Shown here in pieces: positions 18,820 through 53,990 of a stretch of 64,000 nt of DNA (its first letter is position 1; every line of letters starts with the position of its first letter). The translations under genes and the position numbers were made by a program. The notes under the pieces were generated by a model that worked only from the letters and a program-made list of their open reading frames with translations, had not been told where the DNA came from and did no database searches. This DNA is from Mesotaenium endlicherianum (taxonomy: Eukaryota): positions 62,001-126,000 of the forward strand of contig WELA01001079.1 in NCBI GenBank assembly GCA_009602735.1, in the 5' to 3' direction.

Positions 18820-20260
18820 ATAGGTGTCACGAGCCTCGTAGGGAAGATAACACATGAGCGTGCCAAACACCTAGCGCTAAGTGAGCGCAAGCGTCTTGAG
18901 CTTAACGTTCTTGAAGTCAGCCTCGAACTCAGAGTTAGTGTCGTTCAGCTCACAGGTGCCTGGCTTGCTGCTGAAGCGGAAGAGGGAGGTGCTGTCTACC
19001 TTTGTATCCTGGTCACCTGCCATGGAGTACAATGGATCGTTGTGAGTCTACTGAAGCGGTGGCTCGTGGACGGCCGTAGGCTGAGGGGGCTACGGGTGCT
19101 CGTCCTCAGAAGGATCAGTGACAATACCTAGATTTGAGTCTGAGTCCTTGCCACTAATCCCTTCGTAGTAAGAATGATAAGATAGCCCACTACGGGGAGG
19201 CATACGCTGAAGATTCTAAATCCTTGCATGTAAAGAGAGATCATTTTAGAAGTAGGGAGCGTGTGCTCTCCAGAGTGAGCACCTCAAGATTGTAATTTGG
19301 TAGGAATACTACTAATGAAGTCTGGTTCAAAAGATCACAAGAAGCACATTATGATCTTCAAGAGTAGTCCTATGGCAGGGTTTAAGCTGTGACTTTGTTC
19401 AGCACTTGTGAAGTTCATCAAGTGAATGGAAGGCAAGAGGGCTTGCTCTTCACAAGAGAGAGACTAAGTGGTCTTGAAAATACAAGGGGTTAAAGTGTAA
19501 GCTGTACTGATACCTCTGTGGCTTACAGCTGGCACAGTTGACTTCTAAAAGATGTTCTTCTAAGGGCATCAAGTGCTATATACTCCCTGCGAAACCGGCG
19601 TTGAAGGCGGCAGATTTAATGCACGCAGTCATGCTAGGAGGCTCTCTTTGGTCCACGAAAGTGAAGGCAAGGCAAGTATTAGCTCTCCTATTGGCTAAGC
19701 ACAACACACAGCAATCAAACATAGTGCAAGGGAGAGGATGCATGACTCTCATTGGTGGAGCTTACCTTGACCAATGCTACCTAGATAACGCCTCAGAAGT
19801 AGATCTAAAGCGTAAGGAAGCTTCCTCTAGGAGTGAGTCATGCAGTCACCAAGTTATAGCTCTAGTGGTGCTCATATACTATGCTAATACATGCTAAGTG
19901 TACTTTAGCAAGCTCGCGGATTTGTACGCTAATGGCTAGAGGTCCTTGTAGTCGCGAAGAGCCAACAATGTGACCTTTGGGCATATTGAGTCACAAGGTG
20001 GCCCTTGGTGGAACTCCGCTAGGGGCCGATAGGTGGCGCAAAGTAGATCGCAAACATCTCGCTCGATACTTGACCGAATGGCGCGGAACTGGTGCCGTTC
20101 GGAAGGTGACTCGACGCCCTAAACTTTAGTGACTTGGAACGCTAGCAAAGGTCGACATATGAATGCGTGAAGCAAGGTCAAAGTTGGCCTTCCTAGGTTG
20201 ATGGTTGACACACGTGTGGCTCGGCTAGGCGCGGCGGTCCCGACCTAATGAGTCATGACA
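18820..20260 (-). mobile_element. Family D 5' fragment (left terminal segment and gag start)
   Basis: The reverse complement starts TGTCATGA and aligns with 48168 to ~49600, including ATGCCTCCCCGTAGTGGG and CCATGGCAGGTGACC. Confidence 0.85.
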
Positions 20261-28495: not shown

Positions 28496-28968
28496 GTCGT
28501 TTGCTAGAAGTACAAAGCTTTCTACAAAGCCTCCTAGTGTGACTGTGTGCATTGAATGCGCCGCCTTTAGCGCCGGTTTTGCAGGGAATATATAGCAGTA
28601 GATGCCCTTGGAAGGACATCATTTTAGAAGTCAATTATGCCAGCTGTGAGTCACAAAGTTATCAGTAAAGTTTACACTTTTACCTTTTGTGTTTCCAGGA
28701 CCACTTAGACTCTCTCTTGTGAAGAGCAAGCCTTCCTAGCTTCCAGTCACTAGAAGAACTTCACGAGTGGTGAGCAAAGTCACAGCTTAGACCCTGCCAC
28801 TGGACTACTTTGAAGATCATGATGTGCTCCCAGTAATCTTTTGGGCCATACTTCATTAGTTGCTTTCCTAAAAGATTTCAGTCTTGAGGTGCTCACTCTG
28901 GAGAGTACACATCCCCCTACTTCTAAAGAGATCTCTCATTGCCTGCAAGCAATTAGAGTCTTGAGGGT

Positions 28969-31700
28969 ATGCCCACCCATAGTGGGGCTATCTTATCGAC
29001 CTTACTACGAAGAGGCTAGTCGCAAGGACTCAGACTAAGACTCATCAACTGCAGGAGTTCCAAATACTCCTTGGAGGAGGCTTACCTCTCAGTTGAGAAG
29101 GAGAGCCTGGCAGCCGCACGGAGCAACATCAGCGACCGTGTGGGCCTCGCATCCACAGGTGTACGATAAGAGGCCGCGGTGGTGCCATCTTCCACGATAC
29201 GACCAGCCCCTGCAGGCCAGCCCCAACAGCAACAGCCTCAGCGCTTGCAGCTGCTTCAGCAGACTTAGCAGTGCGGAGCTCCGCGCAGCCGTATTTCCAT
29301 GGCCGCCACATCGAGCAATCCTTGCTGGTCCTGCGAGAAGATGGGCCACTCTCGACGTGACTGCACGCTCGCGCAGAACAGCAAGCCCGGCGACTGCACC
29401 TACTCTGGCAAAGCTGACCACTTGCAGATTGCTTGCCTACAGGAGAAGCGCGACATCAAGAACGGGCGCGCTCGTGACGAATCCTCCGCCGCGGCAAGCC
29501 AGCGGGGCACGCGCAACCCGTGCACTGGCAGACGGCGTGCGATGATGGCGGCCACCGCCACGATCAACGCCGTGATGACGCCCGGCGAGAACCACTAGAG
29601 CTACGACGCTTTCAGCAACGCGTTGTTAGCAGCCAAAGCCGAGACCGCTTGCCTACACGCTTGCAACGCCAGCTTTGGCTACGGCGCGTGTGGGGTGCGA
29701 TACGCTCGTGCCAACGGCACGCTCCCCGCTCAGGATCTGTCAGTGGCAGACAGGGGCGACCCAATTGGCTGACAGCAGGCAGACGCCCATCCGTCGCAGC
29801 TCGGCTAGCCCATGCCACAGTCCGCCCTTGCGACGAGCCGGCCCCAGCGCCAGCGCACCCAACACGAACGCTGGCGATGGTCCTGGCCTTCACGGCCTTG
29901 CTGTCAACAGCAGGGACAACCATGGTCGGCCTAGCGACAGCTGGCGTCCCCCTACAAGCCCGCCAGACGGCTACGCAGGCCACAATGAACTTCGGCACTT
30001 GCACCGCACACGCATGCGCACGTCTGCGCATGAGGGAGCGCCAGGAGCATTGCTGCCTGCTGCTAGCTGCCAGCAGCTGATTCCAGCAACGGGCGCCACG
30101 CGGCGCGCGTACGGCATCTGAGGCGCCACGCTCCAGCACCAGCATCGTTGTCCGTGGTCAGGCGCCAGGGATGGCGGCGCAAGGTCCATTTCGACGACTT
30201 GGTCTCCTCCTCTTTGGCACGCCAGCTTGAGCAGCTGCGCTTGGCAGCTGCTCCCAGATGCCGTCACTTGGCGCAGGCATATGGCTCGAACCAGTAGATG
30301 CGCAGACGAGAGAGGGGGCCGACATCACCCATCAGAGGGGGGGTACCCCCAATCCTGTCGCATGACCCGATCGTTGGGGAGCCACGGGACGGCTCGCGCA
30401 TGACGTGGCACAGCCAAGGTGTAAACCCTGGCCGCGCACAAAACCCCGGCGTCGCCGCAATCTGCGCTGCCAAGGTTGCACAGGGTCTGCTCGCTCGTAA
30501 GTGGGCCGATCAAGCATTGCACGGAGCACACGCATGTGAGAGCGCCAAAGGATCGACGGCCCGCCTCAGGGGCGACTCTGGAGCGCCACCTAAAGGCCCA
30601 GCATAGGTCCTTCTGGACCCTGCAACCGTGCCGACGCCTGTGCCAGTCCCCACAGAGGCGCCCATCCTCGCCGAGGCGCCAGCGCCACAGCCAGAGTCTG
30701 CACTGGCAGCTTCGCTCGCAATGGCACATGTTGCAGTAGGGTCAACAGCCGCGCCATTTGAGGCCCTAGTTTGTTGTGCACGAACACGGCCACTTGGTAG
30801 TGGTCCGGCATCTCATGAGGCGTCCCGCGAGCGCAAGCTCGTGGCGGTTGCTAGGCAAGCAGCAATCGCACCGAAGCGCGACGGGCTCAACTAGGGACGG
30901 CGTACGGAGGAAGCCCCGCGTCTGCCTTGCTCCTTCCGCGTCTTGGACCCGCCAGCAACGCTAGTCCGGCATCACACGCACTCGCCTCTCCGGTGATGAC
31001 GGTGGAGCTCAACGCCGAGGTGCTATCGATGGCGTTGCACCGCATGCCGGCGGCGTCCTTCGCGGAGTTCGGCGTGACGTTGGAGGCAACTCGGCAAACC
31101 ACCCAGGTGATGCTTTGTTCACGCGCTCTTGGTGCCCGCACGAGCACAGATTGGCCGATAGCAGGGGCTTCTACTGCGATGCTCTCTGATCCCGCTCAAC
31201 CCCCGTACGAGCGCAGGTTAATCAGCAGCCCCAACGCTGCGTTCTTAGACAACGCACAAGGATTCATGTTGGTCAACAAACAGGCCACTCAGCGCATTAT
31301 GTTCAACATTGGCGCAGAGCCAGTTCTGATCAGTCACAGCTATCTCTGGCAGCTGGGCCTCTCCTCAGCCGACCTGGAGGATTTGCCCGTGCGGATCAAG
31401 ACTGCGGCTGGTACATCCAAGTTCGTGACAAGGCGTACTCGGCTGGCGCTCGTCTTCTCATTTCGGCCCGAGACCGAGGATGAGACAACAATCCATCGTC
31501 ACGCGCTCAACACGCGCTCTGACACCTTGACGTTCTCTTGGGGCAGGACGTGCTCTTCCTCATTGGAGTTGCTGTGGATAACTTAACGGAGCGGGCACAC
31601 TATCGGCCCGACTGGCGCACGCAAGGCACGCGCACGGCCTCAATCTCGCTTAACATCCTAGACCGGCGACCTATATCGGCGTCGCTCTACGGCTTCATGG
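28969..31700 (+). pseudogene. gag: Family D gag (internally deleted; two zinc knuckles) and aspartic protease
   Basis: MPTHSGLSY start, CWSCEKMGHSRRDC, CTYSGKADHLQIAC, RIMFNIGAEPVLI (DTGA in the copy at ~52770) and LGQDVLF. Confidence 0.85.
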
Positions 31701-32829
31701 CGTTAGGCGACGATGGTGATAGGCTTGGCGTCACCCAAACAAGCAAGGGCGGCTCGAAGGATGACGACGGTTCTGTTGGGGCAAACCTGCTCCAGCCCCA
31801 GGACGAGGAGCTTGATACCAAGCGCAGAGCTCCACCTCTCACCACAGGATCAAGCGCAGCTGCTGAGAGCGCAGGCCCCAAAGTTTGTGCGCATTTACGC
31901 GGCACAGCACGCCGTGATGCGTCAGATGACAGCAGCAGCGACCGCCGCCGACGACGCCGTTACAACAGCAGTGGCTACGGCTGCTAGAGCCTACGAGCTC
32001 CTCGCAGCCACCGCCAGCGCGGTTCGTCCGTGAGGCGCCTTTGCGTGAGAGGGAGCCCTTGCCCGCCGCACGATCTGATGTCCGCCTACGACAGTGGGAG
32101 TGGCCATGCGGTTTCAGATGGCGTGTCAGCCACCTTCGCCATCAATGCACACAGACGATACCGACCGCTGCACGATTGCCTTGGAGGAGGAGGCCATGCG
32201 CCCGGCCGCCTACGACCTTCTGGCAGATGAGGAGTCGTACGGGATGGCGTCGGAGGAGTCGTACGAGGAGTCGATTGAGGCACCCTCGTAGGCCATGTCC
32301 GTCACGCCTGTCGCTCGCGTTTGCCGCATGCCCACAGTTCCCCTACGCTTCAGCACGCTGATAGAGCCCTCAGGCTTTGACAGGCCTGTTGGTCCCTTTG
32401 GGGTTTGGCCGCTCTTCCTCTGTCGGCCCGCCAGGGTTCAGCTTGCCTACGCCCGCTAGGTCTGGCGAAGCCTTTCGCTGTGTGGCAGGCCCACGGTGCC
32501 AACCCAAGCATGACTGCTCGACTGACGCCAGCTGTCGAAACCTCACGCACAGGCTGTACGACAGAGGTGCCAGAGATGGCAGGTCCGGCTCGTGCGCCTT
32601 TCTTGCTGCTACCTCCAGCACCTCTGACACGCGCGCCAACGCCGCTCGCGCGATTGTCAGCGCACCTGGCACTGCGATGATTGCCGTGCCCATTTTGCGC
32701 TCAGTCATCCGTCCAAAGTCAGGACGAGAACTGCGTGACAGGTTGCGAGCTCTCACTCCGCCGCAGCTCAGGCGCAGTCTTCGCAGCAGGCGCAGTCTCA
32801 CGCCCTCGCCCAAAGGTGGTCAATCTCTC

Positions 32830-32916
32830 ACGCCGCCCTACAGCAATACCCGGGATCGTCCCGTCACTCCGCCCTACCGCAACAGCCGCGATCGGGCAGC
32901 CACCCCGCCGTACCGT
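32830..32916 (+). repeat. 36-bp coding tandem repeat, ~2.4 copies
   Basis: TPPYSNTRDRPV / TPPYRNSRDRAA / TPPYR. Confidence 0.75.
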
Positions 32917-33669
32917 GAGGTGGACAATTTCGAGGATGCCCCGCACTCCACCACGTACGCCACCCACACGCTCTACGATCAGCGGCCACCACTCTTTCGC
33001 AGCCGGCGACAGGCCTAACGGCTTACCTCTCTCCAAGGAGGGCCGCACCAGTACCCGCGCGTGCAACTCCAGGCCCGGACGCCGCTCTGCAGCCGTCGAC
33101 AACCTGGCGCGCCGCCACCCGCATCTTGACGATCAGCTGCCGCTTCACCCGCAGCTCCGTGCCCAAGTGCAGCTGGCGCCTTGCCCGCCAATCACCAGTG
33201 CGTGTCCGGCAGTTTGCTCATGGTAAAAAGCCCGCTGGCAGCGCCAACCTGGTGAACCTCCCGTTCCACCAGCGCCAGCAGGCCTACTACGACCCGCACC
33301 CGTACCTGCCCCAGCGCCCAGTAATGGACCAGCTCACGTACGCAAGATCATGAGGCCAGGCGCAGGTGGCAGCTCACATGCGTGCCATGGCCCAGTCACA
33401 TTCCACGCGTGTGCCCTCTCCCATCTTGCAGGATGCTCGAGACAGGTGGCGTCAGTTACAGGCCCACGCGCGCATTGCCTGGCCCCAGCCGCTGGCTGGG
33501 TCTATTTTGCATCTTACGTGCAATTACGCCGACCGCGCAGTCGTTGCGCTCCGCATGGCTCCTCACTAAGCCAGCATGGCCCGTATATACCCGCCGACAA
33601 CAAAGCCAGGCGATCCTGCTGTGGGTCTTTGCCTCCTGCCATGCTGATCTACACGGAACAGCTGCATGA

Positions 33670-34610
33670 GCAGCTTGGCGGCATCGTCCTGGTGGAGCTG
33701 TTCACCGACATTGCTACTGGGTTGCTGGCTACCCTGCAGGTTGGTATTCCCGTCCGGCTGTACGTCTACGTCAACTCTGAACCTGAGGCGCAGCAGATCG
33801 CCCAACGCCACACGGCGCTCTATCACGAGCACTTTCCATTTGCGCCTTCCGCCTGGCGCAGACCGCTTGGCCCTTGGATGTACGCAATGTCACCGACGTG
33901 ACCCTGACCCCCCTCAGCCACGTGGACCTCGTCAATGCTGGCTGGGAGTGCCACGGGTTCTCCATCGCCGGTCGCGGCGGGGCCCTCAGTGACCCTTGCA
34001 CGGCGCTTTTTTGCACCTTCTTTGCGTCCTCAATATGGTTGAGGTGCGCCAGCCATCTCACTCCCTCGCGTGGGTCTTGCAAAATGTGGCGGTGCGCAAC
34101 GACAACCGGGCCAATGTTTGGGCCAACTTTGAGCTCTGCAACAGCTATCTTGGGCGCAAGGCCGTCATCAACGCTGCGCATTGGGTCCTTCGCCCACCGC
34201 GTGCGCGCCTACTTCATCACCCTGGCACGCTGGCGGCCCTAGCAGCCGCGGACGCACGCCACAATCGCACCATCAACTCCATTCTTGATGTCTTGCGATT
34301 GGCCCAACGCGTCACACCTTTGGCCCACCCATCACAGGCCCAGTGTGAGTTGCTCGGCAACGTCACGCGCGCCCTGCCAACATTCGTCAGCCGCTACGAC
34401 AGCGGAGCCTACATCGGCGCGGCCCGCGAGATGATCATCGACCTTTTCTCCGGCCTGTATGAGCGGTCGCGCGCCGCGGAGATGGAGCGCGCTATGGGTT
34501 TTCCGCCGCATTTGACCAGGTGGATGGCATCACCGAGGTCAACCGCATTTGGCTCTTCGGGCAGGCCATTGATGCCAACGTCTTGACATGGACTCTTTTG
34601 CAGACGCAGG
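33670..34610 (+). pseudogene. C5 cytosine DNA methyltransferase domain within the retroelement polyprotein (frameshifted)
   Basis: Motifs occur in canonical order: I LVELFTDIATG, III DV, IV DLVNAGWECHGFSIAG (Cys codon 33949-33951), VI WVLQNV, VIII GSFAHRVRAYF, IX EMERAMGFP, X RIWLFGQAID. Confidence 0.9.
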
Positions 34611-35106: not shown

Positions 35107-36539
35107 GTGAAGCTGACGGAGAAGCTCAATACCTGGCGCAGTGCCTACTTTGCCAGCGGCATAGATGACTTGGGGCGCTACACTGGCGACCTCATGAGGC
35201 TCTGCCTTACATCCGACGTGCCCATCTTCCAAAAGCGATACCGCTACAGTCACTTCAAGGACGACTTGATCAGCACGCAGACAGGCAAGCTGGAGGACGA
35301 CCAGCTTAGTCGGGAGTCTTCCTCTACCTACGCGACCCCCACGGTCATGCCGGCAAGGAAGGATGCCTCAAGCAACTGGTCTGAGAAGAGGATGTTCGGT
35401 GACTATCGTAAGCTAAACGAGGTTACTGAGCAAGACATATATTCTATGCATACCCCTGACGCAATCTTCGATGACATTGGCACGTACACATGGTTCTCGG
35501 TGCTAGACTTGAGGCAGGTTTTATCCAGATTCCTATTGCGTTGGAGGACCAGCAAAAGACAACGTTCTGGGGGGCACAACGCCTCTACGATTGGAAGGTG
35601 ATGCCCTTGGAGCTGAAGAACGCTCCAACTACATTCCAGCGGGTCATGGATGAGGACATGGCAAGGCTATCCTTTGCCCGGTGCTACTTTGATGACGTGC
35701 TCGTCTTCAATGAGTCGTTCGAGGAGCACGTGGCGCACATTACCGCCGTCCTGGACCGCTTGGAGGTCGTTGGGCTCAAGTGCCATCCAGGGAAGTGCAC
35801 CTTTGGGACCCGAGAGGTGGAGAACCTCGAGCATCTCCTCTCGTCCAGCGGCTTGGCACCGTAGCTAGCCAAGATCTTGGCCATCACAGGCATCCCGCTG
35901 CCTATCAACGTCTCGCAACTGAGGGACTTTCTTGGGATCGCCAACTAACACCGCCGCTTCTTGCCTGGCTTCAGCAAGCTCGCTAAGCCACTCTACGACT
36001 TGCTGCGGAAGGGGGTGGCCTACGTATGGGGAAGAGAACAGCAGGCGGCGTTCGATAAGCTCAAGGAGATGCTAGTGAGCGTTCCAGTGCTGCGGCGGCC
36101 TGACCACACTAAGCCCTTCATCCTCCACACCGACTGGTCGCTGGCAAGGCTGGGAGCAAGGCTGGTGCAGGAGCACAACGGTTGCGAGCACGTGGTGGCG
36201 TTCGCCAGTTGCAGCAACAATCGCGACGAGGCCAACTATAACTCTTATGAGGGGGAGTGCCTGGCAGCGGTCTAGGCTATCGTGTACTTCAGGCACTACC
36301 TTCATGGCACCCACTTCCGTCTCGTCACCAACCATCTGCCGCTTAAGTGGTTCATGACATTGGAGCGCCTCACAGGCAAGTACGCGCAATAGGCACTAAT
36401 TCTGCAGGAGTACACGTTTGACGTGCACCACCGCCTGGGCTCAACCAACATAGACGTTGACGACCTCACTTGCAACCCGTTGCTTTCCTCCAAGGACCTG
36501 ATCGTGGCCCATCACGACGAGGACAAACCAGCGGCTTGA
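35107..36539 (+). pseudogene. pol: Family D reverse transcriptase and RNase H
   Basis: KRMFGDYRKLN, VMPLELKNAPTTFQR, CYFDDVLV, KPFILHTDWS and NYNSYEGECLA; several stops. Confidence 0.93.
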
Positions 36540-37139
36540 CAGGGTTAAGTCGTACGCTTAGTTCAAATAATACGCTAGTTCGCTCAAGTCGGTACTTTGA
36601 AAAATGGACTAGTTTGCTTCATACGCCTAGTACGCCAACGTTACGACGACGTCAACGTTCACTAGTTACGAAGTTGACATTACATGTCGGTCGCACGTGT
36701 AAAAGAAGCACGTCATGTCAGACTGATTATTTTGTTCAAAAAGGGATGTTATGCCCGCTTTGCGGCGACAAGTTGCGAAATTTTTTTAACTCCGTCTGTA
36801 GCGGGAGGGTAGCAGGCGGATTTGAACACCCGCCGTCGCAAGCAGGGATAAACTCTACTCTACGTGCCGTGCACATTTCTTAGACTCGAAGAGTTTTGAC
36901 TGTGTTAATTAATCATACGCTACAAAAACGGTTGGCGGAAAATAAATCAAAAAAACTTAACTAAAACGGTAGGCCCCGAGCGCCAGCCGACGGGCTCGAA
37001 CCCCCGCCACTGGCTGCTGGAAGCAATGACTTACCAGTTTTTCATTGTAAGTACTTTAAGGTACAAAGATTTGTATTGCTTAATTCCTCAGTATTTAATG
37101 CTGTTTCCGTGTACAATTTTGACAACATTTATTCATGCC

Positions 37140-37550
37140 AAAGCTGGAAGGGCCGCTTAGCAGAGCTGTTTATTGTCCTTCCTAATTATTTTATTAGTCG
37201 AATTAGAACAATTAGAGGTATCATTACTTCTTAATTGGTAACAACAAGCTTCGATGAAGATGTATGAACATGATTCGAACTTTTAGCAAGCATGTGTAAG
37301 AACTTATAAGTTCTTATAAATGCCACATATAAGAGTGACAGAAGTTTGACTAAGAATTATTTCCGTACTCGCTTTTTCTCACTAACACTGGGAGGGAGGG
37401 TCGCTTAGCAGAGCATGTTTTCTGTACTTTGTTACTAGCTAATTGATTCACTAAGAACACTTAGGAGTATTACTTCTCAAGTGAGTACTGTAAGCTTTAG
37501 TGAAGAAATATGACCATGATTCAAACTCTTAGCAAGCATGCATAAGAGTT
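37140..37550. repeat. Diverged direct duplication with ~250 bp period in the hAT 3' region
   Basis: GGG(C/T)CGCTTAGCAGAGC...CATGATTC(G/A)AACT(T/C)TTAGCAAGCATG occurs twice. Confidence 0.75.
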
Positions 37551-37804
37551 TAGAGGTAATCCATACCATGCAAATCATTCACACAAAGTGCAACATTGCA
37601 TGAAGTTATAGGGCACACAAAATTGATTTCAAATATATCATTTTTTCAACTTACATTTCTCTTATATGTACATGCTACCTCTAGTACATAAACATTAGCT
37701 AATTGACACATCTAGTAGCCAATCGCTCTTGGCCTTCTTCTTACAGGAGCATAAACACTAGGTCGCTCCTCCACCTCCTCTTCCTCTACCTCCTCTTCCT
37801 CTAT

Positions 37805-40140
37805 CTACATCTCCTCTTCCTCACTCAACGCGGCATGCAAGGCATGATTGAGATCCTCCTTTTTAGGTGTCTCCAAGAACTGCGCTTCTTCAACCCATGG
37901 AGTCGCGCCGACACTTGGTCCAAGGAAGTCCAAACTCTTCTCTTGAAGTCTCAACATACAATGCACGTACACTAACTTCTTTGCTCTAGTAGGGAGCAGC
38001 CTATTGCGAAGTGGACTATGAACAAACCCGTACTCAGACCATTTCTTCTCACATGCAGTTGCTGAACCAGGTTGCGACAACATTCTCATAGCAAAAAGCT
38101 GAAGATTAGGACAATGACTTCCGTATGTTTCCCACCACTTGTGAGCAGGCATCATGGTCTTATTAGCCTTGCAAACATCATCGCCAAAAATGTCACCGTT
38201 CTGCCGGTAGAGCGCCAACTCTCGATCCACAAATGCTCGGTCAAGCACACTGCCTCCGACAAGGGTATCCGCACGTTGGACCAATCGATTAGTAGACACT
38301 TCTCAACTGCCCAAGACTCATGATCTTGGAACTCGGGGTCCAGTTAGTAGCCTGTAGCCAAACAAAGTCAAGAAGCACTCACTATACGACAACACAATGC
38401 ACTTCATAAATAAGAGAGCAATAACAATAGCAAGCACAATAGTAATAACAATGACCAGCACAAAATAACAATCATGCACGAGAACAACAGCCGCCGAGCA
38501 GAAAAGGTAAACAACATCAAAATAGATATGTACCCGCAGAATGTAAGGGGCTGCAAAGTTGCTCCCAGCGAGCCTTCACGTCCTTCTTAACTTGGGTCCT
38601 TTGTGCCGGTTTGAGTCCTTCAACCTCAAGCACATGCTCTCTCATGGCACTCATGCAAGCCCAAATCTTCCCAAAAGAAGGTTGTGGACAATCGACTAGT
38701 TGAAGGAGAACTACAATCGGCTCACACACAGCTACCCATACCTTCACTCGCTCCTGAAGTTCATCGTCGCGAACTAATCTCCGTAGCCTCACCTACACGA
38801 CCGTTCTTTGCCGCCCACTCGAGCCATCTTCTGTCAGACACCATAGCTTGTACGGTATCCCTCACGACAATGAGTTTCTGCAAGCAAAGGAAGTTACTAG
38901 CAAACCTTGTGGGTCCTGACTTCAACAACTCTAGTTTATTTTCAAGCCTTGCCCCATGCTCCCGGTAAAGAGCGTGAGGCATTTGGTGGTTTGCAACAAA
39001 TTGGACCAAGTGCTTGAAGCTATCAATAATGCCCTCTAATTCTCTTATCTTTCCTATGTCATTCAATAGCAAGTCTTAAATGTGAGCCAAACAAGGCGTC
39101 CAATATTTGTGCGGGTGCCTCTCACGAACCACATTACTACTAGCTACAATGTTAGCTGCAGAGTCTATGCAAAGCTGTACGACATGGTCGGCCCCTATTT
39201 TCTCCACGGCCGCAAGCAGGTGGTTACCAATGTACTCACCCGTTGTCCTTTCACCCTCAGTGTTGATAGCATCCATGAACATCTCACTGCCTCCCACAAC
39301 CATAAGCACATTAAGAAGAGGGTGCCCGCATGGATCGGTCCACCCATCTTTTGCAATGGTACAACCCGTCTGTGGTAGTCCCTTCTTTTGTTTCTTCTCC
39401 CAAGCTTCTATCTTCGACACCACTTTATCTACTAGGGTACTTCCGAGAGGCTTATCCTTCATCAAGACATACTCTACACCCGTTTCTTGGGTGCACCTAC
39501 TGACAGCAATCAACATGTCCCTAAAGAAGTCACTGAGAGCAACATTGAATGATGAACCAGTACCATAGAAGAAGCGTGCGACAGTCTCATGAACAGTCTC
39601 AGCATTCATCTTCTAGAACATGTCACTTATAGAGGTTTGCCCTTACTCCCTACCTAAGGAGGGGGACCCTCCACCACTTGCACAACCCCATTCATGCACG
39701 CGCTTTTGTGCAGCTTGTATGACACTCTTCCTACATCGCGTTTCTAATAGAGAAGTAGCCATACCATTGCTACGGCTAATCATGAGATCTAGAACTTCAT
39801 CGGGAACATCCTGACACTGACTAACATCCTTACAGCCGCCCGTGAAATGGCCACGAATCCGCGTGACTCCACCGGTAAACTCCCTGGGGCAGTAGTTGCA
39901 CTTCACCTTCGAATATGAAGTCTTGGACTTGGCTTCCACAACGATGGTCACATGGCCCCACTCTAGACCAGACCTTACAGCAACTGCCCTAGGGGGTACA
40001 GAAGCGATTAAAGTTGCAGTGGACGCCCTCATTTCAGCAACCGTTGCTCCAGATGAAGTGCATGGTTGGGACATGATGCGCGTGAAACCTCCAATATGGA
40101 TGTATAGTAACAACCAATAAGAGACAAAATAAGATGCCAT
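37805..40140 (-). pseudogene. hAT transposase (BED finger, DUF659-type catalytic region, dimerisation domain) with a probable intron at ~38350-38516
   Basis: KVKCNYCPREF.GGVTRIRGH, CTIAKDGWTD, WTPCLAH, PTRFAS and WWETYG...LSQPGSATACEKKWS; stops and frameshifts. Confidence 0.92.
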
Positions 40141-40189
40141 TCAAATACCATATAAACAAGCAAAAAAGCAACAGTAGGCAAACAAGAGA

Positions 40190-43000
40190 GCATGCAGCCC
40201 CAACAAAAGCAAGCAAGGGGCAGGCAGCCCGCCCCTACTACAACTTAAAACAGCAAGCAAGGGGCTGGCAGCCTACCCCGACAGGAGCACGCACGGGGTT
40301 GGCCGCCAGCCCAGACAGGAGCAAGCACAACATCAGCCAGCCCCAACTAAAACCCTAAAACAGCAAGCAAGGGGCTGGCAGCCCGCCCCCACTAAACCCT
40401 AAAACAGCAAGCACGGGCTGGCAGCCAGCCCCGACAGCAGCAAGCACGGAGCTGGCAGCCATCAACAACGACACATACCCCACCACAAAGAGAGAGTGCA
40501 CAAAAGAGGAAGAAGGGGGGGGCAAGTACCTGATGCACGTGTACAAGGACAATCGCGCATCGACGAGCGCCAAGCGCTGCCGACTTGCTATTTACTACTT
40601 GACCTGCTTCACACATTGTACACCCACCACGAAGAGTTATAAGTAGCGCAGCAAGGGCAGTCTCGCACAGCAAGGGGAAGCTGCAGCACAGCAACAGCTA
40701 GACAGCCCCAAGAAAACCATGCAAGGGGCGGTTGCATCACAGCAGCAGCCAGATAGCCATAAAAAAGCACGCACGAGGCAGCTGCAGCACAGCAGCAACC
40801 AGAGAGCCCCGACAAAAGCATGCGGCTGCAGCACAGCAGCACCCAGACAATCCCTACTAAAGCACAACAAGCACAACAGGGGCAAGCAAGGCAACCCCAA
40901 CTAAAGCACTGTAGGGAAAAGCAAGGGGCTGGCAGCCCGCCTTGCCCACAGCAAGCAAGGGGCGGGCGGCTGCAGCACTGCGCAGCTAGCCAGCCCAGAC
41001 TAAAGCACAACAGGGGCAAGCAAGGCAACCCCGACTAAAGAAAACAGGGGCTAGCACCTGAAGCCATGCTGCAGCTACCCGGGCCCAACCAAAACAAACA
41101 AGGCGCGCAAAAATAGACACACTCACACGGATGACAGCAGGCAGCAAACAGCAGACAATGGGTCAAAAACAACAAACAAGAACCCCCCCAACAAGAAGTC
41201 GAGGGCTCATGCGGGCAAGTGTGGCCAGGCTGCCACAGCGACAAAAGAACAAAGGGAGAGGCAGCAGGCCATCAAAGAATACAAGTTGAAGCGACAAAGA
41301 GTGAATTTGGAGGGGGGGAGGGAAGGCACCTAAAGCACGTGTCGGAGGTGGGCTGTTGTGCAACTGCCGACTCGCTCTTTTGCAACTAGGCTTGCTTCAC
41401 AAAAAGTTAAAAAATAATAATAACATATAAAAATAAGGAGCAGGCGGCTTGATGGAACGCAAGCACGCCAAGAATAGACTACCAGCAGCAGCGCAGCCAG
41501 TGCAAACACAGCAAGCCAACCACAACAACAACTATAGGCCAGCAGGATCTGAGCACAAACAAATATAACGGTACCACGTGGGAGAAAATTGGCATGAGAA
41601 TACAATGTGCATGGGAGGCAAGGACATGGTACTTGAAAAGCGTGAGGAAAGAGGATCCCCGTTGATAGGCACGCAAGGTGGTAAGTCTGCCAACGTCCTT
41701 CTGGCTTGGACACTGACGCACATGATAAAGAACAGGCGGAAAGTTGTAATTAAAGCAATTGGTAGCGGGCAAACAGAAAAGAGGGCGGGCAAAGTGGGAA
41801 GTAGCCGTTGGCGGAAAGTCAAAGCAGCAATTCACAAATGGTAGCGCATAATAACAGTACACAACAAAAGACAAGCAGCAAGTGCTCCTGAAGGACACAC
41901 ATACGCCAGCCAAGGTAGCTAGCACTAACCTACGACCTTGAAAGGTGCGCTACAGACAAAATATGGTAGCACATAACAGCAGCACTCACAAATACTTGTC
42001 AACAACACACAAGCCGGAAGAGGAGCAGCAGCAAGTGCTCGCTAACAAGCACAACATCGAAAGAGGGAGGATGAAAGGACATGGTACCTCATGCAAGTGC
42101 TAGGAGAGAAGTCTCACTTCATAGGCGCAAGGGCTGCCAAATCTGCGGACGCAGCTCTTTCACAAGCCTGCCTGACACAAGATCAAACAGGTCCAGCATT
42201 GTAAAACAAGTTGCAGACTCGACAAATAGCAAAGGCACAAGACTTGCAAGCAGGCAACACGTGAGGGGGCACACAAGAGAGCACAAAGTCGGCAACTGTT
42301 GAGAATGTAAACTAGCAATTGCGAATACAAACAGGGCAACTTTGGCAAAACAGGCGCAACAGAACAGAGAAATTGTAAAAGCAACAGGCAATTAGGGACA
42401 AGCAAAAAGTGAGCGACCATGAGAGAGAGCAGGAAAGAGGATAATGGCGGGGCATGGCACCTGATGCGCAGAGTGAATGACGGAGTGTCTTCAAAGGGCG
42501 CAAGGGGCGGCAAGCCAGAGCACTTCCTTGTCTCAGCTGCGTTGGTCGCACTCAGTGTAAAAAACATCTAAAACTTGTAAAAGAGGTACATGGTAACAGG
42601 CAGCCATCAATGAACATACAAGAGACCAGGCAAAGGGGCAAAAGCTGAAGCCTGGCAGCATGTGAAAAAACATCACAAAACCCTCTAGCAGCAGGCGGCC
42701 ATTAAGACCACGTGTGAATAAATAGCCGCAAAAGGGAGGGCAGGTATGGGCAGCCAAATGGAGCTAAGAAATAACAGAAGCATGCACGGGTGGAAGGCAA
42801 TGTACAAAAACCAAAGACCCGCCTTCCAAAGATAGAGAAGGAAAGGGGAGGAGGGGAGGAAGGGAGGGACATCGAACCTGATGCACGTGTGAGGAGACAG
42901 ACACGTCGATATGGCTCAGCATGCCTGACACAGACACAAAGACAAGGAGGCAAACAGGGACGCAACTATAACATGAGCAAGAGGTAGCCAAGCAGGTAGC
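40190..43000. repeat. Degenerate, strand-asymmetric repeat region upstream of the hAT transposase
   Basis: At least six AAGCA(A/C)GG..CTGGCAGCC-like units, ACCTGATGC(A/G)C at ~40528, ~42459 and ~42876, and a T-poor plus strand. Confidence 0.65.
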
Positions 43001-44419
43001 AAAGCAGACACAAGAAAAACATGTTTGCTTTGCAAGGCAAAAATACAACTTATTCCACCCCAAATGAGAGTACACAGACTATGGCCTCCATAAACACTGC
43101 CATGGCACCCTTCGCCTCCCTCTCCCCAATGTTGTCCCCCTATCTTAATAGACCATTAGACAAGCAGGGGCAAACTTTGTAGGTGCATTTACATACCTAA
43201 GATGAGAAGTCAATCGGACCCCAATGAAAAGTCTATCTCGGACGTGGAGTTGAGCTTCCAAAGCCTTCTAAATTGAAGACACATAGAAGACAAAGGGCGA
43301 AAATTTTCAGTACACATGAGACCAATTGGACCATGCTAATTTGGTATACAAATACATCCCTACACGGTAACAGCTGAAACCCTAAACACCCAGCAAGGAG
43401 GCCATTACACAAAAACAACCTAAGAGATTATCAAACTGGGAGGACAAATAAGAAAGCAAAGAGGGACAGCAAATCTGACCTTGTCAAATCAGCAAATCAA
43501 CCCAGTGGCAGTATGAATGTCCAGACACTTTCTTCTGTCGACGTTTCTGAAAGTATATCAAGCAAAAATGTTGAATAGAATGTAAGTAAAAGAGTAAACG
43601 GGCGAAGACGAACTTGAGTGACATTTGAGAAACTATTAGAGCAACCACCACAATTCAAATCTGAAACATTGAGCAGCATACAGACAACAAGAAGCAAGAT
43701 AGAGCAGGTCATTGAGGCCATCTCAGTTGAGAATGTACATTACACATAAAAAAGTAAGCACATTAGAATCACAAAGTGAACACAACACGTTGACGCCTGC
43801 TACAGCAAGCAAGTGCATACAGCAACAAAGTGATGGAGGTGAACGAAAGGCGAGAAATGCAACTTACGAGCTGAATGGTGGTGCGAAATGAACTGGAATG
43901 GGAAACTAAAGTGTTATGTAGGTAGCCCTCAGGCATGGCCTCAAAGGGGTTGTGGCAGTGTGCTTTGCAGCTAGCGAGGAAGATCCATGAGCAAAGTTCG
44001 CAGTTTCAAAAATATTGGTGAACACCTTCTGGTAAAATTTTGCAAAATTTTGAGTTCTCGCAGCAACCTGACATTATTGTGCCTTCATCTCATCATCTCG
44101 TCGACCGACACTATATTGAAACTCATACGTAAACTTTAGCAAACGGTCCCAGACGTGAAGGCGTTGACGCATTATTGGGCGGTGCGCACGAGTAAAGAAG
44201 TTTTGTACGCTTAGTACGTGCGTACCGACTCAGTACGCTTATTTAAGCGTACGAGAGTCGACTTGTACGGCGTACGGCGTAACCCTGCTGGCATGCGGCA
44301 GCCTTCTTGGCCTTAGTGATGGACAGCGATGCGTGGCTTTGGTGTTCAACACGAGGCGTTTGGCATGGGCTGCAGCAGCAGAGCAGGACAGATGGCAGAG
44401 CAAGCCCAAGGACGTTCGG

Positions 44420-45838
44420 GACGATGCCACATTGCTGCAGTACGTCGCCGCTAAGGAGATGGTGCCTAGCAAAGACGTGAGGGACCGCGACCGCATCCTC
44501 TAGCGCAGCCGAGATTTTGTCTTCATGGAGGGTCGGCTGAGGCGTGTGATGGCCGACGACTCCGTCCTGGTGATACCTAAGCTCGCTATACGCAGCCATC
44601 TGGTTCGCACCGTGCATGAGGCCCTTGGACACTTCAGTGTCAAGCGCACTCTCAACCTACTTCAGGCTGAGAATTGGTGGCACGGCATGGCTAAGGTCGT
44701 GGCTGGCGTTGTCAGCAATTGCACTCTCTGCGACAGTGTGCGCTCACGCTTCACAACGCGCATTGTTGCCTTTAGCCCCTTGCCCATTCAGAGGCTGTTT
44801 TACAGGTGGTCATTGGACTTAGCTGGGGAGTTTCCCAAGTCCCGCCGGGGCAACCTCTACGTCTTGGTGATGATTGAGCACTTGTCCAAGTGGATCGAGC
44901 TCGTGCCCTTGCCCAGCAAGGCCAGTGAGGGGATCGCTCAGGCGTTCCTTGATCAGGTCTTTAGCTGTTTTGGCGGTTGCGCAGAGGTGCTGACTGACCA
45001 GGGCAAGGAATTTCAAGGCAGCTTTTAGAAGCTGCTGGAGCGCTCCATGATCAACAATCGCACCACCCCCCGTGATTAGCCCCAGGCTGATGGCCTTGCA
45101 GAGTGCTTGGTGCAGATTGTCAAGCTGGGGCTGTGCAAGTACTGCCTGACCCACGACAGCATCCATTGGAATGACGCACTCCCGTGGCTGGATATGGGAT
45201 ACAACTTCAGTTGCCAGGCATCCTTGGCCTTGTATTCTCCCTACTTACTACTTTATGGACGCCAACCGATCCTACTAGCCGTAGCCAGGATCGTAGCTCG
45301 GAGTGTTCTAGACTTGGACAGTCCCGAGACACCGAGTGCTCTTAACGGCAGCCTGCACAGCTGTTTCAGCGCCATGGACAATCTCAATATCGCCAAGGAC
45401 CACGAAACGCTGAGGTATGCCATGACTTGTGGAGGAGCCTATTGTCCTCGAGTGTTGCAGTTTTTTGCAGGTGACTGCGTGTACCTATAACGCCAGACGA
45501 AGAACACCCTCGACACTAGCAGCTCGCCGTTCATCCTGCGCGTGAAGCATGCCTTGGCGTCAGGAAAACTGGAGCTGGAAGGCGTAGATGGCCGTCTTCA
45601 CAAGGACCACACGAAGAACTGCGGTCCATGCCACCTTCCTTACCTTGATGTGCAGGTCCGTCCCAGCGACGCGCGGCCGCCCAAGGACTGGCCGTGCCAG
45701 ATTTGCCACAGCCTTGGCCAAGAGGCCAAGTTGCTGCTCTGCAACAGCTGCAACCTGGGCTTCCACATCGGCTGCCTCAACCCCCCATGAGAGCGCGTCC
45801 CCGCTGGAGATTGGCTATGTAATGCATGTTCTAGTTGA
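44420..45838 (+). pseudogene. pol: Family D integrase with C-terminal PHD finger
   Basis: VHEALGHF...CTLC, RWSLDLAG and VLTDQGKEF, then CQIC...LLLCNSCNLGFHIGCLNPP*ERVPAGDWLCNAC (C4HC3) with one in-frame TGA. Confidence 0.92.
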
Positions 45839-46027
45839 CTAACGGTAGCATTATCAGCTCATCAGCTGGAGGCTGAGAGCTGGGGGGGGGATTAAAACAT
45901 TTGAGAGCTGACCTTCTTTTTGGCCATAAGGCCGCATGCCTTTTCGCTTTCACCACAGCAAGTCTTCCTTGCCCACTTGGATTTTGCTTGTATTCACTGG
46001 ACGTGCCTAACCCCCTAATGCACGACG

Positions 46028-48167: not shown

Positions 48168-51100
48168 TGTCATGATTTATTGCGTCGAGGTTGTCGTATA
48201 AAAACCAAGCTCCACATGTGCGAAACATCAACCTAGGAAGGCCAACTTTGCATTGACTTTACGCATCCGTATGTTGATCGTTTCTAGATTTCCGAGTCAC
48301 CAACTTGTAACGTGTTGAAGCATCTTCCGAGTGACACCAATTTCGCGTCATTTGGTCAAGTATCGAGCGAGATGGGTGCGATCTAGTCCGCGCCACCTAC
48401 CGGTCCCCAGCGGAACTTTCCCAACGCCTAATTTGTGACTCAATGTCCTCAAAGGTGACATTGTTGGCTCTTCGTGACCCCAAGCTTTGTGCGCACAAAT
48501 TCGCGAGCCCCTTAGCCTACATAAGCTTTGTATTTCCATAGTATATGTGCATCATTGAGGCTATAACTTGGTGACTCCATCACCTACTCCTAGAGGAAGC
48601 TTCCTCAATTTCCAGATCCACTTTTGAGGCGCTATCTAGGTAGAATCACCCAAGGTAAGCTCGGCCAATGAGGACCACGTAGCATATCCTACACACCTTG
48701 CTTTGATTGGTTTGAGTTATGCTTAGCCTATAGGAGTGCTAGTACATGCCTTGTACACATTAGTGGACATAGGAGAGCCTCCTAGAGTGACTACATGCAT
48801 TGGATCCGCCGCATACCCCGCCGGATTTCCAGGAGTATAAGTACTAGAGATGTCCCTAGAAGAGACATCTTTTAGAAGTCCATTATGCCAAATGTAAGTA
48901 ACGGAGATTATCAGTAAAGCTTACACATTTATCTCTTGTGTTACTTACTACTTAGTTACTCTCTTGTGAATAGCAAGCCCTCCAGGCTTCTAGTCACTTG
49001 AAGAACTTCACAAGTGGTGAGCAAAGTCACAGCTTAAACCCTTGCCATAGGACTACACTGAAGATCATGATGTGCTTCCAGTTTTCTTTTGGGCCATACT
49101 TTATTAGTTGTTTTCCTACTAGATTACAGTCTTGAGGTGCTCACTCTGGAGAGTACACATTCCTTACTTCTAAAAGATCTCTCTTTGCCTGCAAGCAATT
49201 TGAACCTTCAGCGTATGCCTACCCGTAGTGGGCTTTCTTATCAGCCATACTACGAAGGGGTTAGTGGAGAAGACTCAGACTCAGATCTCAGCACTATCAC
49301 TGAACCCGCCGAAGAAGAGCAACCTGCTCTCCAGCACACAGCAGTTGCTTCTGAGCCATCTCCCCAGTGGGCTCACTACAATTTCTGGTATCCCATGGCA
49401 GGTGACCACGAGGTCAGGACGGACAGGTCTGCCTATCGCTTCAGCGGTAGGCCAGGCACCTGTGATCTGGAAGATACCATCTCGGAGTTTCAGGCTGACT
49501 TCGCGGCTGCAAAGCTCAAGACACCCACGCTGACTAAGCGCAACGTCTTTGACACGCTTATGCGCTACCTCTCGCACGAGGGCTGCGACACCTTTCATGA
49601 GAAGGAGGCCGAGCTCCGGACCCGCACTGAGTTTGTGGGTGACCCACCAGTGGCGATCCTGCTAGCTAATCCAGTGCAAGCCTTCTGGAACATCCTGAAG
49701 ACAGAGTTCCAGGCTGCAACTGAAGAGAAGATGGACGAGCTGCACCATTTCTTTCCACGCAAGAATGAGACTATCCGCATGATGTACCGCCACTTGGTGC
49801 ACCTCCGCCGCGATGTCGGCACTGTCACTGACCGAGAGGCCGCGGGGATCTTCTTGCGCGCCGTTGAGCCGCGTTTGAGGGAGAGGGCCGTAGTCCCCCT
49901 CATCAACCGTCACGATTCAGAGTATTCTTTGGCCTACCTCTCCATTGAGAAGCAGAGCTTGGCCGCCGCACGGAGCAACATTAGCGATCGTGTGGGCTTA
50001 GCATCCACGGGCGTGCGCCAGGAGGCCTAAGTGCTGCCGTCTTCTACGACGCGCACGACGCCTGCCCGCCAGCCCCAATCGCAGCAGCAGCAGCCTCAGC
50101 GCTCTCAGCTGCCACAGCAGACGCAGCAGCGCGGAGCTACGCGTGGCCGCATTTCCATGGCTGCCACCACGAGCGATCCCTGCTGGTCTTGCGGGAAGAC
50201 GGGCCACTCACGCCAGAACTGCACTCTTGCGCAGAATGGCAAGCCCGGCGACTGCACCTATTGTGGCAAGGCCGGCCACCTGCAGATCGTCTATCTGCAG
50301 AAGAAGCGCGACGTCGAAAACGGACGCGCTCGCGATGGCCCTACGCCTTCAGCAGGACAGCGAGGCGCACGCAACCCTCGTACGGGTGGCCGCCCCGCGA
50401 TGACAGCAGCTACGGCCACGACAAACGCCGCATTGATGCCTGGAGTCGACTACTGCAGCTTCGACGACGTCAACGACGCCCTCGTGGAGGCCAATGCGGA
50501 GATCGCTAGACTCCGTGGCCTCGTTGACGTCGATAACTATGACGCGTGCGGAGCACTCCTCGCGTTCGCTCCACCGTCCTACGCCACGGAACTGACAGCT
50601 GGCTCACGCACAGCTTCAACGCACACATCAGGCTCAGCGGCAGCGCCGCAGCCCTGCGCACGTCCGCGTTACGACGTAGCGCCCGCTGCCAGAGCTGCAG
50701 GCGCCCGCACAAGCAGCTGTGCTAGCCCTGTGCGCATAACTCTGACAGCTGTCAGCAGCGACAGCCAAAGTCCCGACAGACTGTCGGATGGCAGGCTGCA
50801 CAACTGCGCGGATGCGCCAGCTCCCGGCGCAAGCTCGCGCGCACGCGGGCCAGCCCGCGGGCCAGCCGAGGCCCCTACAGAGCCCCTGGCTTGCGCTTCC
50901 CTGCTGGCACCAGCAGGCCTCCCGCCGGTCCGCGTAGCGACAGCTGGCAGGCAGGGACAAGGGCACCTGGCGGCGTGCACGGCTACAACGGGTCCGGCCG
51001 CAGCCTTCCACTCCGTCCGTGCGGCACGCCCATGCGCAGCTCTGCGCACAGTCAGGGACAGCCGGTCCCCGCTGGCTGCTGCAGACAGCAGGCTCCAGCA

Positions 51101-53990
51101 GAATCCGCCACGTGGCACGTGCACGGTAGGCGGGGCCGCCTCTGCCGACAGCAGCATGCACGCACGCACGGTGGCTCACACGCGCGCCCAGCGCACTGCG
51201 CTGCCAGGTCCATGGTGCACCCGGCGACGCCAAGACGTCGTCACAGCGGCAGCTGCAGCTGCGCACAGCAGTTGCACCCACGCGCTGCCAAGTGGCGCGT
51301 GCNNNNNNNNNNNNNNNNNNNNNNNNNNNNNNNNNNNNNNNNNNNNNNNNNNNNNNNNNNNNNNNNNNNNNNNNNNNNNNNNNNNNNNNNNNNNNNNNNN
51401 NNNNNNNNNNNNNNNNNNNNNNNNNNNNNNNNNNNNNNNNNNNNNNNNNNNNNNNNNNNNNNNNNNNNNNNNNNNNNNNNNNNNNNNNNNNNNNNNNNNN
51501 NNNNNNNNNNNNNNNNNNNNNNNNNNNNNNNNNNNNNNNNNNNNNNNNNNNNNNNNNNNNNNNNNNNNNNNNNNNNNNNNNNNNNNNNNNNNNNNNNNNN
51601 NNNNNNNNNNNNNNNNNNNNNNNNNNNNNNNNNNNNNNNNNNNNNNNNNNNNNNNNNNNNNNNNNNNNNNNNNNNNNNNNNNNNNNNNNNNNNNNNNNNN
51701 NNNNNNNNNNNNNNNNNNNNNNNNNNNNNNNNNNNNNNNNNNNNNNNNNNNNNNNNNNNNNNNNNNNNNNNNNNNNNNNNNNNNNNNNNNNNNNNNNNNN
51801 NNNNNNNNNNNNNNNNNNNNNNNNNNNNNNNNNNNNNNNNNNNNNNNNNNNNNNNNNNNNNNNNNNNNNNNNNNNNNNNNNNNNNNNNNNNNNNNNNNNN
51901 NNNNNNNNNNNNNNNNNNNNNNNNNNNNNNNNNNNNNNNNNNNNNNNNNNNNNNNNNNNNNNNNNNNNNNNNNNNNNNNNNNNNNNNNNNNNNNNNNNNN
52001 NNNNNNNNNNNNNNNNNNNNNNNNNNNNNNNNNNNNNNNNNNNNNNNNNNNNNNNNNNNNNNNNNNNNNNNNNNNNNNNNNNNNNNNNNNNNNNNNNNNN
52101 NNNNNNNNNNNNNNNNNNNNNNNNNNNNNNNNNNNNNNNNNNTTGCGGAAGGCTGCGAGGACGGCGCTGTGACAGGCCCTGCGGCAGGATGCGTGGCAGG
52201 TTTGCCGGCTGCGCCAGCAGCAGCCATTTTGGCCTGCTGCGCACGCGCACAGCCACTCGGCAACCGCTTTGCAGTCGGGCGCGCGAGCCGCGAGCACACG
52301 CTCGCAGCACCGGCCAGTCGGCCCGTTGTTTTGCAGAAGCGCGTCGGGCCAGACCAGGGACGACGGACGGAGGAGGCACCGCGGTTGCCTTGTTCCTTCC
52401 GCATCCTAGAGCCCTCTACGACCCCAACAGAGCCGACGCCACATGCGCTCGCTTCACCTATGACGACGGTGCTGCTCAGCGCCGAGGTCATCTCGCTCGC
52501 ACTGCACCGCATGCCGGCGGTCTCCTTCGCAGAGCTCGGTGTCTCCATGGAGGCAACAAGGCAGGCCGCTCAGTTGATGCTCCAGTCGCGCAGAGCCACG
52601 CTGCGCACCGCCGCCAGGAGGCCAACGGCCGATGCCGCCACCGCGGTGCGATCCACGCCCGCGCGTCCTGCGCATGAGCGCAGGATGATCAGCACTCCTA
52701 ACACCGCGTTTTTGGATAATTTGCAGGGGATCGTGCTCGTCAACACCCAGGCGCCGCAGCGCATCATGTTCGATACAGGCGCGTAGCCGGTTCTCATCAG
52801 CCTCCGCTACTTGCGTTAGCTAAGACTCTCTTCCGCCGACTTGGAGGACTCTCCGACGCGCATTAACCACGCCGCCGGCACGTCCGAGACCGTCGTCGGC
52901 CGCACGAGCTTGGCGCTACTGTTCACTCTGCGCCCAGGCACGGCAGACGAGACAACCATCCATCGGCACGCACTCGTCACTCCTTCCGAGTCCTTCAATG
53001 TGCTTTTAGGGCAGGACGTGCTCTTTCCCATTGGCGCCGCGGTCGACAACTGGGCGGAGCGCGTCTTCTATCGTCTCGACTGGAGGACAGGGGGGACGCG
53101 CACCGCATCCTTGCCCCTTGACATTGTCGATCGCCGCCCAGTAGTGTGCGCTCTTTATGGCTTCATGGGGCTAGGCAATGGCCGGCCAGTGGTCAAGACC
53201 GATAAGGACGGGCCCGAGGACGAGGAGATCTCTGTGGGGGTGGACCTGCTCGAGCCACAGGACGAGGAGTCGGACCTACCTAGTGCCGAGCTCCACCTCA
53301 CGCCGCAGCAGCAGGCGGATGTCCTGGCAGCCCAGGCCAGGGAGCAGATCCGCATCTGCACTGCCCACAGCGCGATGATGCGGCAGATGGCGGACGATGC
53401 CACTGAGGCCCTCGCCACGGCTAGCACAGCCATCGCTGTCGCCGTCCTTGCTCGCGGTGCGGTCGCAGCGCCTACGGCTCATCAGGGGGTCTCGGCTTCT
53501 CGAGGCAAGCCGTCCGCGAGGACCGACGTCCGCGTTCACCTTGACGTGCCGGTTGGCGTGGCCATTCAGTACAGTATGGACTCTCAGCCGCCCCATCACG
53601 ACGCCTTGCATCAGACCGGCAAGACCTGGCCTCGCACCACGGCATCCAAAGACGAGGCCATGCGGCAGGCAGCTGATCCTGGGAGATCCGGCGACCAGTC
53701 CCTCAAGAGTGAGGAGGAGACACAGTGGGAGCGACTGCCAGAGGCATTCGTCGAGGTACTCAGCGCGGCGCCACCAGAGGAGCCCCCCGCCAGCTGCGCC
53801 TACGGCACGCCGGCAGCGCGCACCTATTGGTCCCCTTGGCTTCAGCGCACCCAGCCAGCCCATGACTCACGACTGGCCCAGCAGGGCTCGCACCGACGCC
53901 GCTGGACCCAGCTAACCAATGTCACACGACTGCTCGACGAGCCACGAGTGTCGCCGCATCGCGCATTTGTTTGCGACGAGCCGGGCGTTT
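48168..53990 (+). mobile_element. Family D copy: intact left end, gag and protease; truncated before the DNMT
   Basis: Starts TGTCATGA; gag begins MPTRSG at 49215; CWSCGKTGHSRQNC, CTYCGKAGH, IMFDTGA and LLGQDVLF. Contains the gap at 51303-52142. Confidence 0.88.
51303..52142. other. Assembly gap
   Basis: 840 N. Confidence 1.

Follow-up and report, generated by a model that had tools for sequence, protein, structure and literature searches.

A dead DNMT3-like cytosine methyltransferase between the protease and the reverse transcriptase of a Ty3/Gypsy retrotransposon in Mesotaenium endlicherianum

Introduction

Is the DNA between the protease and the reverse transcriptase of a degenerate retrotransposon in Mesotaenium endlicherianum a DNA methyltransferase, is it a native part of the element, and what might such a domain do there? 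The locus lies in a stretch of 64,000 nucleotides, hereafter the window. The original prediction, made from the letters of the window, held that a C5 cytosine methyltransferase occupies this place, that its catalytic Cys is retained, that this copy is dead, and that the family may be undescribed.

Results

A decayed methyltransferase in the window copy

Six-frame reading of 33200-36600 reveals motifs I, IV, VI, VIII, IX and X of C5 methyltransferases, ordered and on the strand of the element as predicted, in six frame pieces separated by five breaks:

33680..34603, + strand: DNMT3-like C5 cytosine methyltransferase, dead (by alignment with the homologue L001, family profile and the predicted fold of the homologue)
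near 33695-33721, + strand: motif I of the domain
33949-33951, + strand: codon of the motif-IV catalytic Cys
34080-34088, + strand: motif VI
34192-34206, + strand: motif VIII
34470-34600, + strand: motifs IX-X

The whole 305-position domain is read from these 924 nt without an intron, the continuity of the frame being lost in the window copy. When Pfam was applied to the raw open reading frames, the neighbouring domains were detected and the methylase was not; the 51-residue piece around motif IV has its best PF00145 score at E 0.072, below the cut-off. The Cys retained in this piece lies opposite the motif-IV Cys of HhaI, in an alignment that is weak when taken alone (E 1.2). Among the matches listed for the same piece in phage genomes, 14 of 15 are annotated as DNA methyltransferase or methylase (E 2e-4 to 1e-2), and the remaining one lacks annotation but comes from a phage that also has an annotated record among them. 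An Atlas search with a window piece gave a weak lead (PF00145 in 13% of the rank-4 cluster), and nothing useful came from comparing three pieces of the window with PDB sequences. Word-index protein searches had no matches either; as this was also true of the reverse transcriptase piece, their negative outcome carries no information.

A homologue was found in L001, a metagenome contig that is the single match to a degenerate motif-IV pattern. Its DNMT domain is near-intact, with a single internal stop, and passes PF00145 (30.2 bits for a cut-off of 22, E 4e-7). A protein-pattern scan of metagenome contigs had none of its 182 candidates confirmed, and in viral contigs motif scans matched 0 and 10 times, with none of the 10 related to the domain. 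Four segments of L001 align collinearly with window positions 33680-34600 (E 3e-15 and 1e-8); the best scores 46.6 bits, where 50 shuffles reach no more than 25.4. A family profile made from 103 domains gives 205.8 bits on the window copy with X at the five breaks; 30 shuffles score at most 0 bits and the reversed sequence -2. Given the collinearity with L001, the profile score and the flanking domains, we have hardly any doubt, from sequence comparison, that 33680-34603 is a decayed C5 methyltransferase between the protease and the reverse transcriptase of a Ty3/Gypsy element, which is the core of the original prediction.

The window copy keeps the motif order, the catalytic Cys and both motif-VIII Arg. 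Both the Gly of motif I and the Glu of motif VI are gone, so that the copy is dead even when the frame breaks are left out of the count. Adding the five breaks, the in-frame stops elsewhere in the element and a nested hAT transposon, the claim of a dead copy stands. The more specific claim that a motif FxGxG decayed to FTDIA is right for two positions: FTDIA departs from the family only at the first two motif-I positions after the Phe, one of them the invariant glycine. It does not hold for the IATG that follows, which is the sequence of DNMT3A and DNMT3C. The frame breaks are genomic, because run X3, of a second study, has a contig without gaps that is identical to 33356-34216 and covers three of the five.

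The element and its surroundings

In order, the element comprises gag, protease, a long spacer, DNMT, reverse transcriptase, RNase H, a hAT insertion, integrase and PHD finger. Its parts, and two further pieces of the family in the window, are:

28528..29047, + strand: 5' segment common to two other family copies, leader or LTR-derived (82-83% identity to 48776-49293 and, inverted, 19137-19643)
29079..29649, + strand: gag remnant with CCHC zinc knuckle (PF00098 E 4e-4, at the cut-off; 75% to copy 2 at 49931-50507)
31266..31526, + strand: decayed aspartic protease (family protease profile 39 bits, E 2e-13; PF08284 only E 0.09)
31530..33679, + strand: long decayed spacer of about 700 codons, its 3' part found in diverged copies
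35110..35909, + strand: reverse transcriptase with one frame break (PF00078 E 4e-17)
36021..36440, + strand: RNase H with in-frame stops (PF17919 E 2e-23)
36540..44287, - strand: nested hAT DNA transposon splitting pol (BED finger, DUF659, hAT dimerisation domain)
44570..45424, + strand: integrase with H2C2 zinc finger, core and stops (PF17921 E 6e-12, PF00665 E 2e-11)
45686..45832, + strand: PHD finger that ends the integrase, with a single in-frame stop (PF00628 30.1 bits, cut-off 24)
48205..53990, + strand: copy 2, diverged, with 5' segment, gag, protease and spacer start, stopping before the DNMT
18822..20224, - strand: third family fragment, with 5' segment and gag start (76% to 48205-49593)

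The order protease, reverse transcriptase, RNase H and DDE integrase is that of a Ty3/Gypsy LTR retrotransposon. The predicted arrangement, with gag and protease upstream of the methyltransferase and reverse transcriptase, RNase H and integrase downstream, is correct as an order; the integrase does not adjoin the RNase H, since the 7.7-kb hAT lies between them. The terminal inverted repeats of this hAT match at 16 of 18 positions, it has no clean target duplication, and it contains a GC-skewed repeat array near 40200-41000. At the C-terminus of the integrase lies a PHD finger, not a chromodomain. A G-rich tract after the PHD finger, at about 45875-45892, is a possible polypurine tract. At 46028, a piece of chromovirus in inverted orientation breaks into the 3' end of the element. 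No LTR pair, no repeat joining the 5' and 3' ends of the element and no tRNA gene were found in the 64-kb window, nor were DIRS-like terminal repeats resolved at the ends of the element, which are disrupted.

Copy 2 supplements the main copy: it has the gag N-terminus that is missing from the remnant at 29079..29649, and its protease scores 87.5 bits with the same family protease profile. Its frame over the protease end and spacer start (52820-53989) is open for 390 codons and has no Pfam match. Just before copy 2, the family 5' segment recurs in inverted orientation over 295 bp (47874-48168), perhaps as part of a terminal repeat. Neither further family piece in the window has the DNMT region.

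The 5' half of the element (29079-34603) has 60-64% GC, against 48% for the window, and its CpG observed/expected ratio is 0.90-1.09 from gag to DNMT, against 0.42 in the neighbouring chromovirus and 0.69 in the whole window. The window is rich in nested insertions. Ordinary chromoviruses with protease, reverse transcriptase, integrase and chromodomain, and without a methyltransferase, lie at 9155-14400, 46028-47719 and 5427-7314; at 14973-16646, after a chromovirus, an open frame of 558 codons has charged, low-complexity ends and matches nothing in Pfam. A DNA transposase remnant with a DDE_Tnp_1-like zinc finger (PF13842, E 7e-4) is found at 57370-58167, and we take it to be piggyBac-like.

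A large family with a DNMT3-like domain

We searched the L001 domain against 1.84 billion representatives and found 1903 clusters (50% identity) at E<=1e-3, 549 at 1e-10 and 156 at 1e-30. The best 150 clusters were examined; their 103 full-length domains, plus L001, make up an alignment of 104 domains. Overall identity in the family is about 35-45%, and the catalytic Cys, the motif-VI Glu and the first motif-VIII Arg are invariant (104/104), the second Arg is found in 103/104, and the motif-I glycine is kept in all of the 100 ungapped rows. The invariance of the catalytic residues is an indirect sign of purifying selection on the domain. The homologues pass PF00145 and the family has motifs I-X with the Cys, Glu and Arg of C5 methyltransferases, so that the DNA_methylase match by which the prediction could be checked exists in the relatives, the window's own motif-IV piece staying below the cut-off. 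Glu precedes the catalytic Cys in 65 of the 104 domains and Pro in 30, making 'WEC' a family trait; the GWEC context that had been called unusual is the commonest form. Since Pfam misses or barely detects many members, standard annotation under-counts the family. Organism names were attached to 4 of the 30 clusters looked up (Scenedesmus sp. PABB004 and three Closterium proteins), with no Klebsormidium sequence among the 30.

The best solved relatives of L001 are DNMT3C, DNMT3A and DNMT3B (E 2e-7), with HhaI at 7e-3. A profile of 62 family sequences finds DNMT3A at E 3e-25, DRM-type enzymes at 1e-12 to 1e-8 and HhaI at 2e-8; the domain is not DRM, because its motif order is unpermuted. Atlas neighbours of L001 are PF00145 clusters, mostly of phage. 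The fold of L001 modelled with the 62-protein family alignment has a pLDDT of 96.9 and a pTM of 0.93 (33.9 pLDDT for a single-sequence prediction). All of the 30 Foldseek matches listed for this model are DNMT3 structures, and a wide structure search with VIA places DNMT3B first (Z 29.3, rmsd 2.5, 272 aligned), followed by DNMT3A (Z 27.7), M.MpeI (25.9) and HhaI (23.0). By similarity of sequence and predicted fold, the family domain is thus DNMT3-like. It shares with the catalytic domain of animal DNMT3A/B/C this best match, the unpermuted order, and an alignable motif I and AHR-x-R motif VIII. It differs in having about 20% identity to them, in a motif IV of W-E/P-C-Q instead of S-P-C-N, and in lying in a retrotransposon polyprotein, not a host gene.

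Two layouts of the family

Among the best 150 proteins, 82 have the DNMT after RNase H and/or directly before the integrase, 10 have it after the protease, 57 consist of the domain alone and one (P0145) is unclear. Pfam analysis of 23 of the longest confirmed the majority layout (RNase H-DNMT-integrase), mostly with a terminal PHD, and a PHD finger is present in 44 of the 62 integrase-bearing family proteins among the best 150. In P0077, a single frame encodes zinc knuckle, protease, DNMT, reverse transcriptase, RNase H and integrase. P0077/P0158, the only complete relative that shares the window layout, has no PHD. Two of the 'domain alone' proteins have cluster mates that also carry a protease before the DNMT. 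The Scenedesmus sp. PABB004 protein has the majority layout and the three Closterium proteins have the protease-DNMT layout. Of the 10 protease-DNMT proteins, six do not run into a reverse transcriptase: they stop 22-185 residues past a near-complete domain.

A DNMT tree of 36 rows, which takes in 18 of the 73 majority-layout rows, is rooted on five phage methylases and leaves out P0145 and the fragment P0071, places the window copy as sister to P0077 and the Closterium trio (95/78). In it, all majority-layout rows lie on one side of a branch (91/92). In a FastTree reconstruction of 113 rows, the window copy is also outside the majority-layout group. In the tree of reverse transcriptase and RNase H, the window copy and P0077, its nearest relative there, fall outside a branch (94) that holds 42/42 majority-layout rows and P0145. 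The window copy has the motif-IV Gly and motif-VI Val of the protease-DNMT group (8/8 rows). The DNMT and RT trees agree on the position of the window copy. AU tests reject neither a clade of the window copy with the majority layout (p 0.15) nor a clade of all protease-DNMT rows (p 0.16), so the grouping is only suggested: the sequences suggest that the window copy belongs with the minority protease-DNMT layout, with tree support below the starred level.

We had tried P0145 as a member of the protease-DNMT layout, and dropped it for its weak reverse transcriptase match (E 3e-9), lack of a Pfam reverse transcriptase and branch of 3.97. This protein of 1230 aa has the family DNMT at its N-terminus and may belong to another class of retroelement.

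A tentative history, which we hold to be somewhat less probable than its contrary, would make Gypsy-DNMT3 an old family of streptophytes and chlorophytes, in which the protease-DNMT-RT layout is the older and RNase H-DNMT-integrase arose by relocation, with mostly Glu before the Cys and a PHD finger that pairs reader with writer.

The domain is carried by other copies in the same species

The stretch, whole or in part, is present in 18 of 24 listed sequencing runs (one organism, five studies), four of which were examined for contigs over the element. One of them (X1) has an identical contig over 33196-36140 and may be the source sample. In X3, 1432 contigs were placed on the stretch, 711 of them less than 90% alike. 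Diverged contigs of X3 bridge the spacer and motif I (33410-33834), and motif X and the spacer downstream of it (34394-34699). Some of them depart from the window copy at its damaged places. The DNMT segment is therefore a multicopy feature of the family, since diverged copies of the same species carry it, as the prediction anticipated for a segment that is not a one-off. No diverged contig in the runs examined spans DNMT to reverse transcriptase in one piece.

These data bear on whether the DNMT could be a one-off capture, or a separate nested insertion in the long spacer, and not native to the element. The spacer before the DNMT has about 700 codons where ten relatives of the same layout have 61-172 aa, and it matched none of the family proteins compared with it; copy 2 stops before the DNMT, in a window full of nested insertions. 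All this would fit a foreign segment, which is nonetheless hardly credible: a protease precedes the DNMT in those ten relatives, the DNMT and RT trees agree, the diverged contigs join the domain to spacer on both sides, and its motif-IV Gly and motif-VI Val are those of the protease-DNMT rows.

Discussion

What the methyltransferase may do

We consider that the window holds a dead Ty3/Gypsy copy, and that the DNMT of its intact relatives is likely to be active on the element's own new DNA. Domains encoded in gag-pol enter the particle, where cDNA is made. The DNMT would be made together with Gag/Pol, as Gypsy biology and PMC5890265 suggest, be packed into the particle and perhaps be released by the protease. 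It would then use SAM to methylate cytosines on the cDNA, most likely in CG, de novo, before or at integration, so that the new copy would arrive already marked, like the methylated host genome. The PHD finger would probably steer the integrase to chosen chromatin. By analogy, we lean slightly towards cDNA methylation as the job of the domain. In its favour, the domains of SymbioDIRS-Dnmt3 show de novo CG methylation in yeast (PMC5890265). The domain of KnitGypsy-Dnmt3, the nearest case described so far, gave no methylation in the same host, a result that the authors describe there as inconclusive and that counts against it. The lack of CpG depletion in the window element also speaks against cDNA methylation, as lasting CG self-methylation might have depleted CpG, and the unusually long spacer and the lack of a contig spanning DNMT and RT weigh against our explanation as a whole.

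The same CpG ratios would suit an active enzyme with another target, be it the chromatin at the insertion site, integrated copies (self-restraint), a non-CG context or RNA, options that are raised in PMC5890265. The frequent PHD finger on the integrase would then pair a chromatin reader with a writer, and the six protease-DNMT proteins that end soon after the domain could mean a Gag-level product. However, these short tails may be contig ends or errors of gene models, and the position in the gag-pol frame puts the DNMT in the particle, with cDNA as its obvious substrate. We thus regard another target as unlikely, while giving it some weight.

An active enzyme, whatever its target, is less easily reconciled with the Glu that most members have instead of the usual Pro before the Cys. 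Together with the inactivity of KnitGypsy-Dnmt3 in yeast (PMC5890265), this replacement could indicate that the family domain is a non-catalytic module, DNA-binding or structural. Against this, the Cys, the Glu and both Arg are essentially invariant, and the motif-I glycine fully so, in a family with such low overall identity, and we find a non-catalytic role very improbable. We therefore retain methylation of the element's own new DNA as the likely activity of the intact relatives.

Comparison with known elements

The predicted link to elements of Klebsormidium and Symbiodinium is supported. The window element matches the Gypsy-DNMT3 kind, represented by KnitGypsy-Dnmt3 of Klebsormidium nitens (de Mendoza et al. 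2018, PMC5890265), and 'Gypsy-DNMT3' of streptophytes is named as previously described in bioRxiv 10.64898/2026.05.21.726589. As described in the text of the 2018 paper, KnitGypsy-Dnmt3 is, like our family, a Gypsy element whose pol includes a DNMT3-related domain that is intronless and non-permuted and has conserved catalytic residues; the match is to this text description, and domain order is not part of the comparison. Both have green-lineage hosts (Closterium for relatives of the window copy), and the window copy differs in being dead. The repeats of KnitGypsy-Dnmt3 have a DIRS-like arrangement. The words 'PHD' and 'protease' are absent from the main text of PMC5890265.

SymbioDIRS-Dnmt3 of Symbiodinium likewise carries a DNMT3-type domain in the Pol of a retrotransposon, occurs with two domain orders and lacks CpG depletion (PMC5890265). 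It has a tyrosine recombinase and known CG activity; the integrase of the window element is of the DDE type, with H2C2 finger and PHD, and the window family is known from sequence and predicted fold. The two published elements are treated as independent acquisitions in PMC5890265. EpiLTRs and DAM-LTRs resemble our family in being LTR elements with a DNA methyltransferase and a chromatin-reader domain; in bioRxiv 10.64898/2026.05.21.726589, their DNMT is sister to DNMT4 and accompanied by an adenine methyltransferase and a chromodomain, and they are stated to be distinct from Gypsy-DNMT3.

The layout of these elements is absent from the available parts of PMC11982613, PMC11244446 and PMC9861306, and searches of the full-text literature, mostly without subscription journals, revealed no further account of this family, of its pair of layouts, or of the WEC motif or PHD finger. 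The suggestion of a possibly undescribed family overstated its novelty, as it belongs to the large and partly described Gypsy-DNMT3 kind.

In summary, this kind of element was published in 2018, and the window copy is a further, dead example in the rarer of two layouts. It points to a family far larger than the published description, one that comprises hundreds of clusters at 50% identity, includes proteins of Closterium and Scenedesmus, and has two layouts and a PHD finger. As many intact natural domains exist, the question left from 2018, whether a Gypsy-borne DNMT3 is active and on what, is now testable with many candidates.
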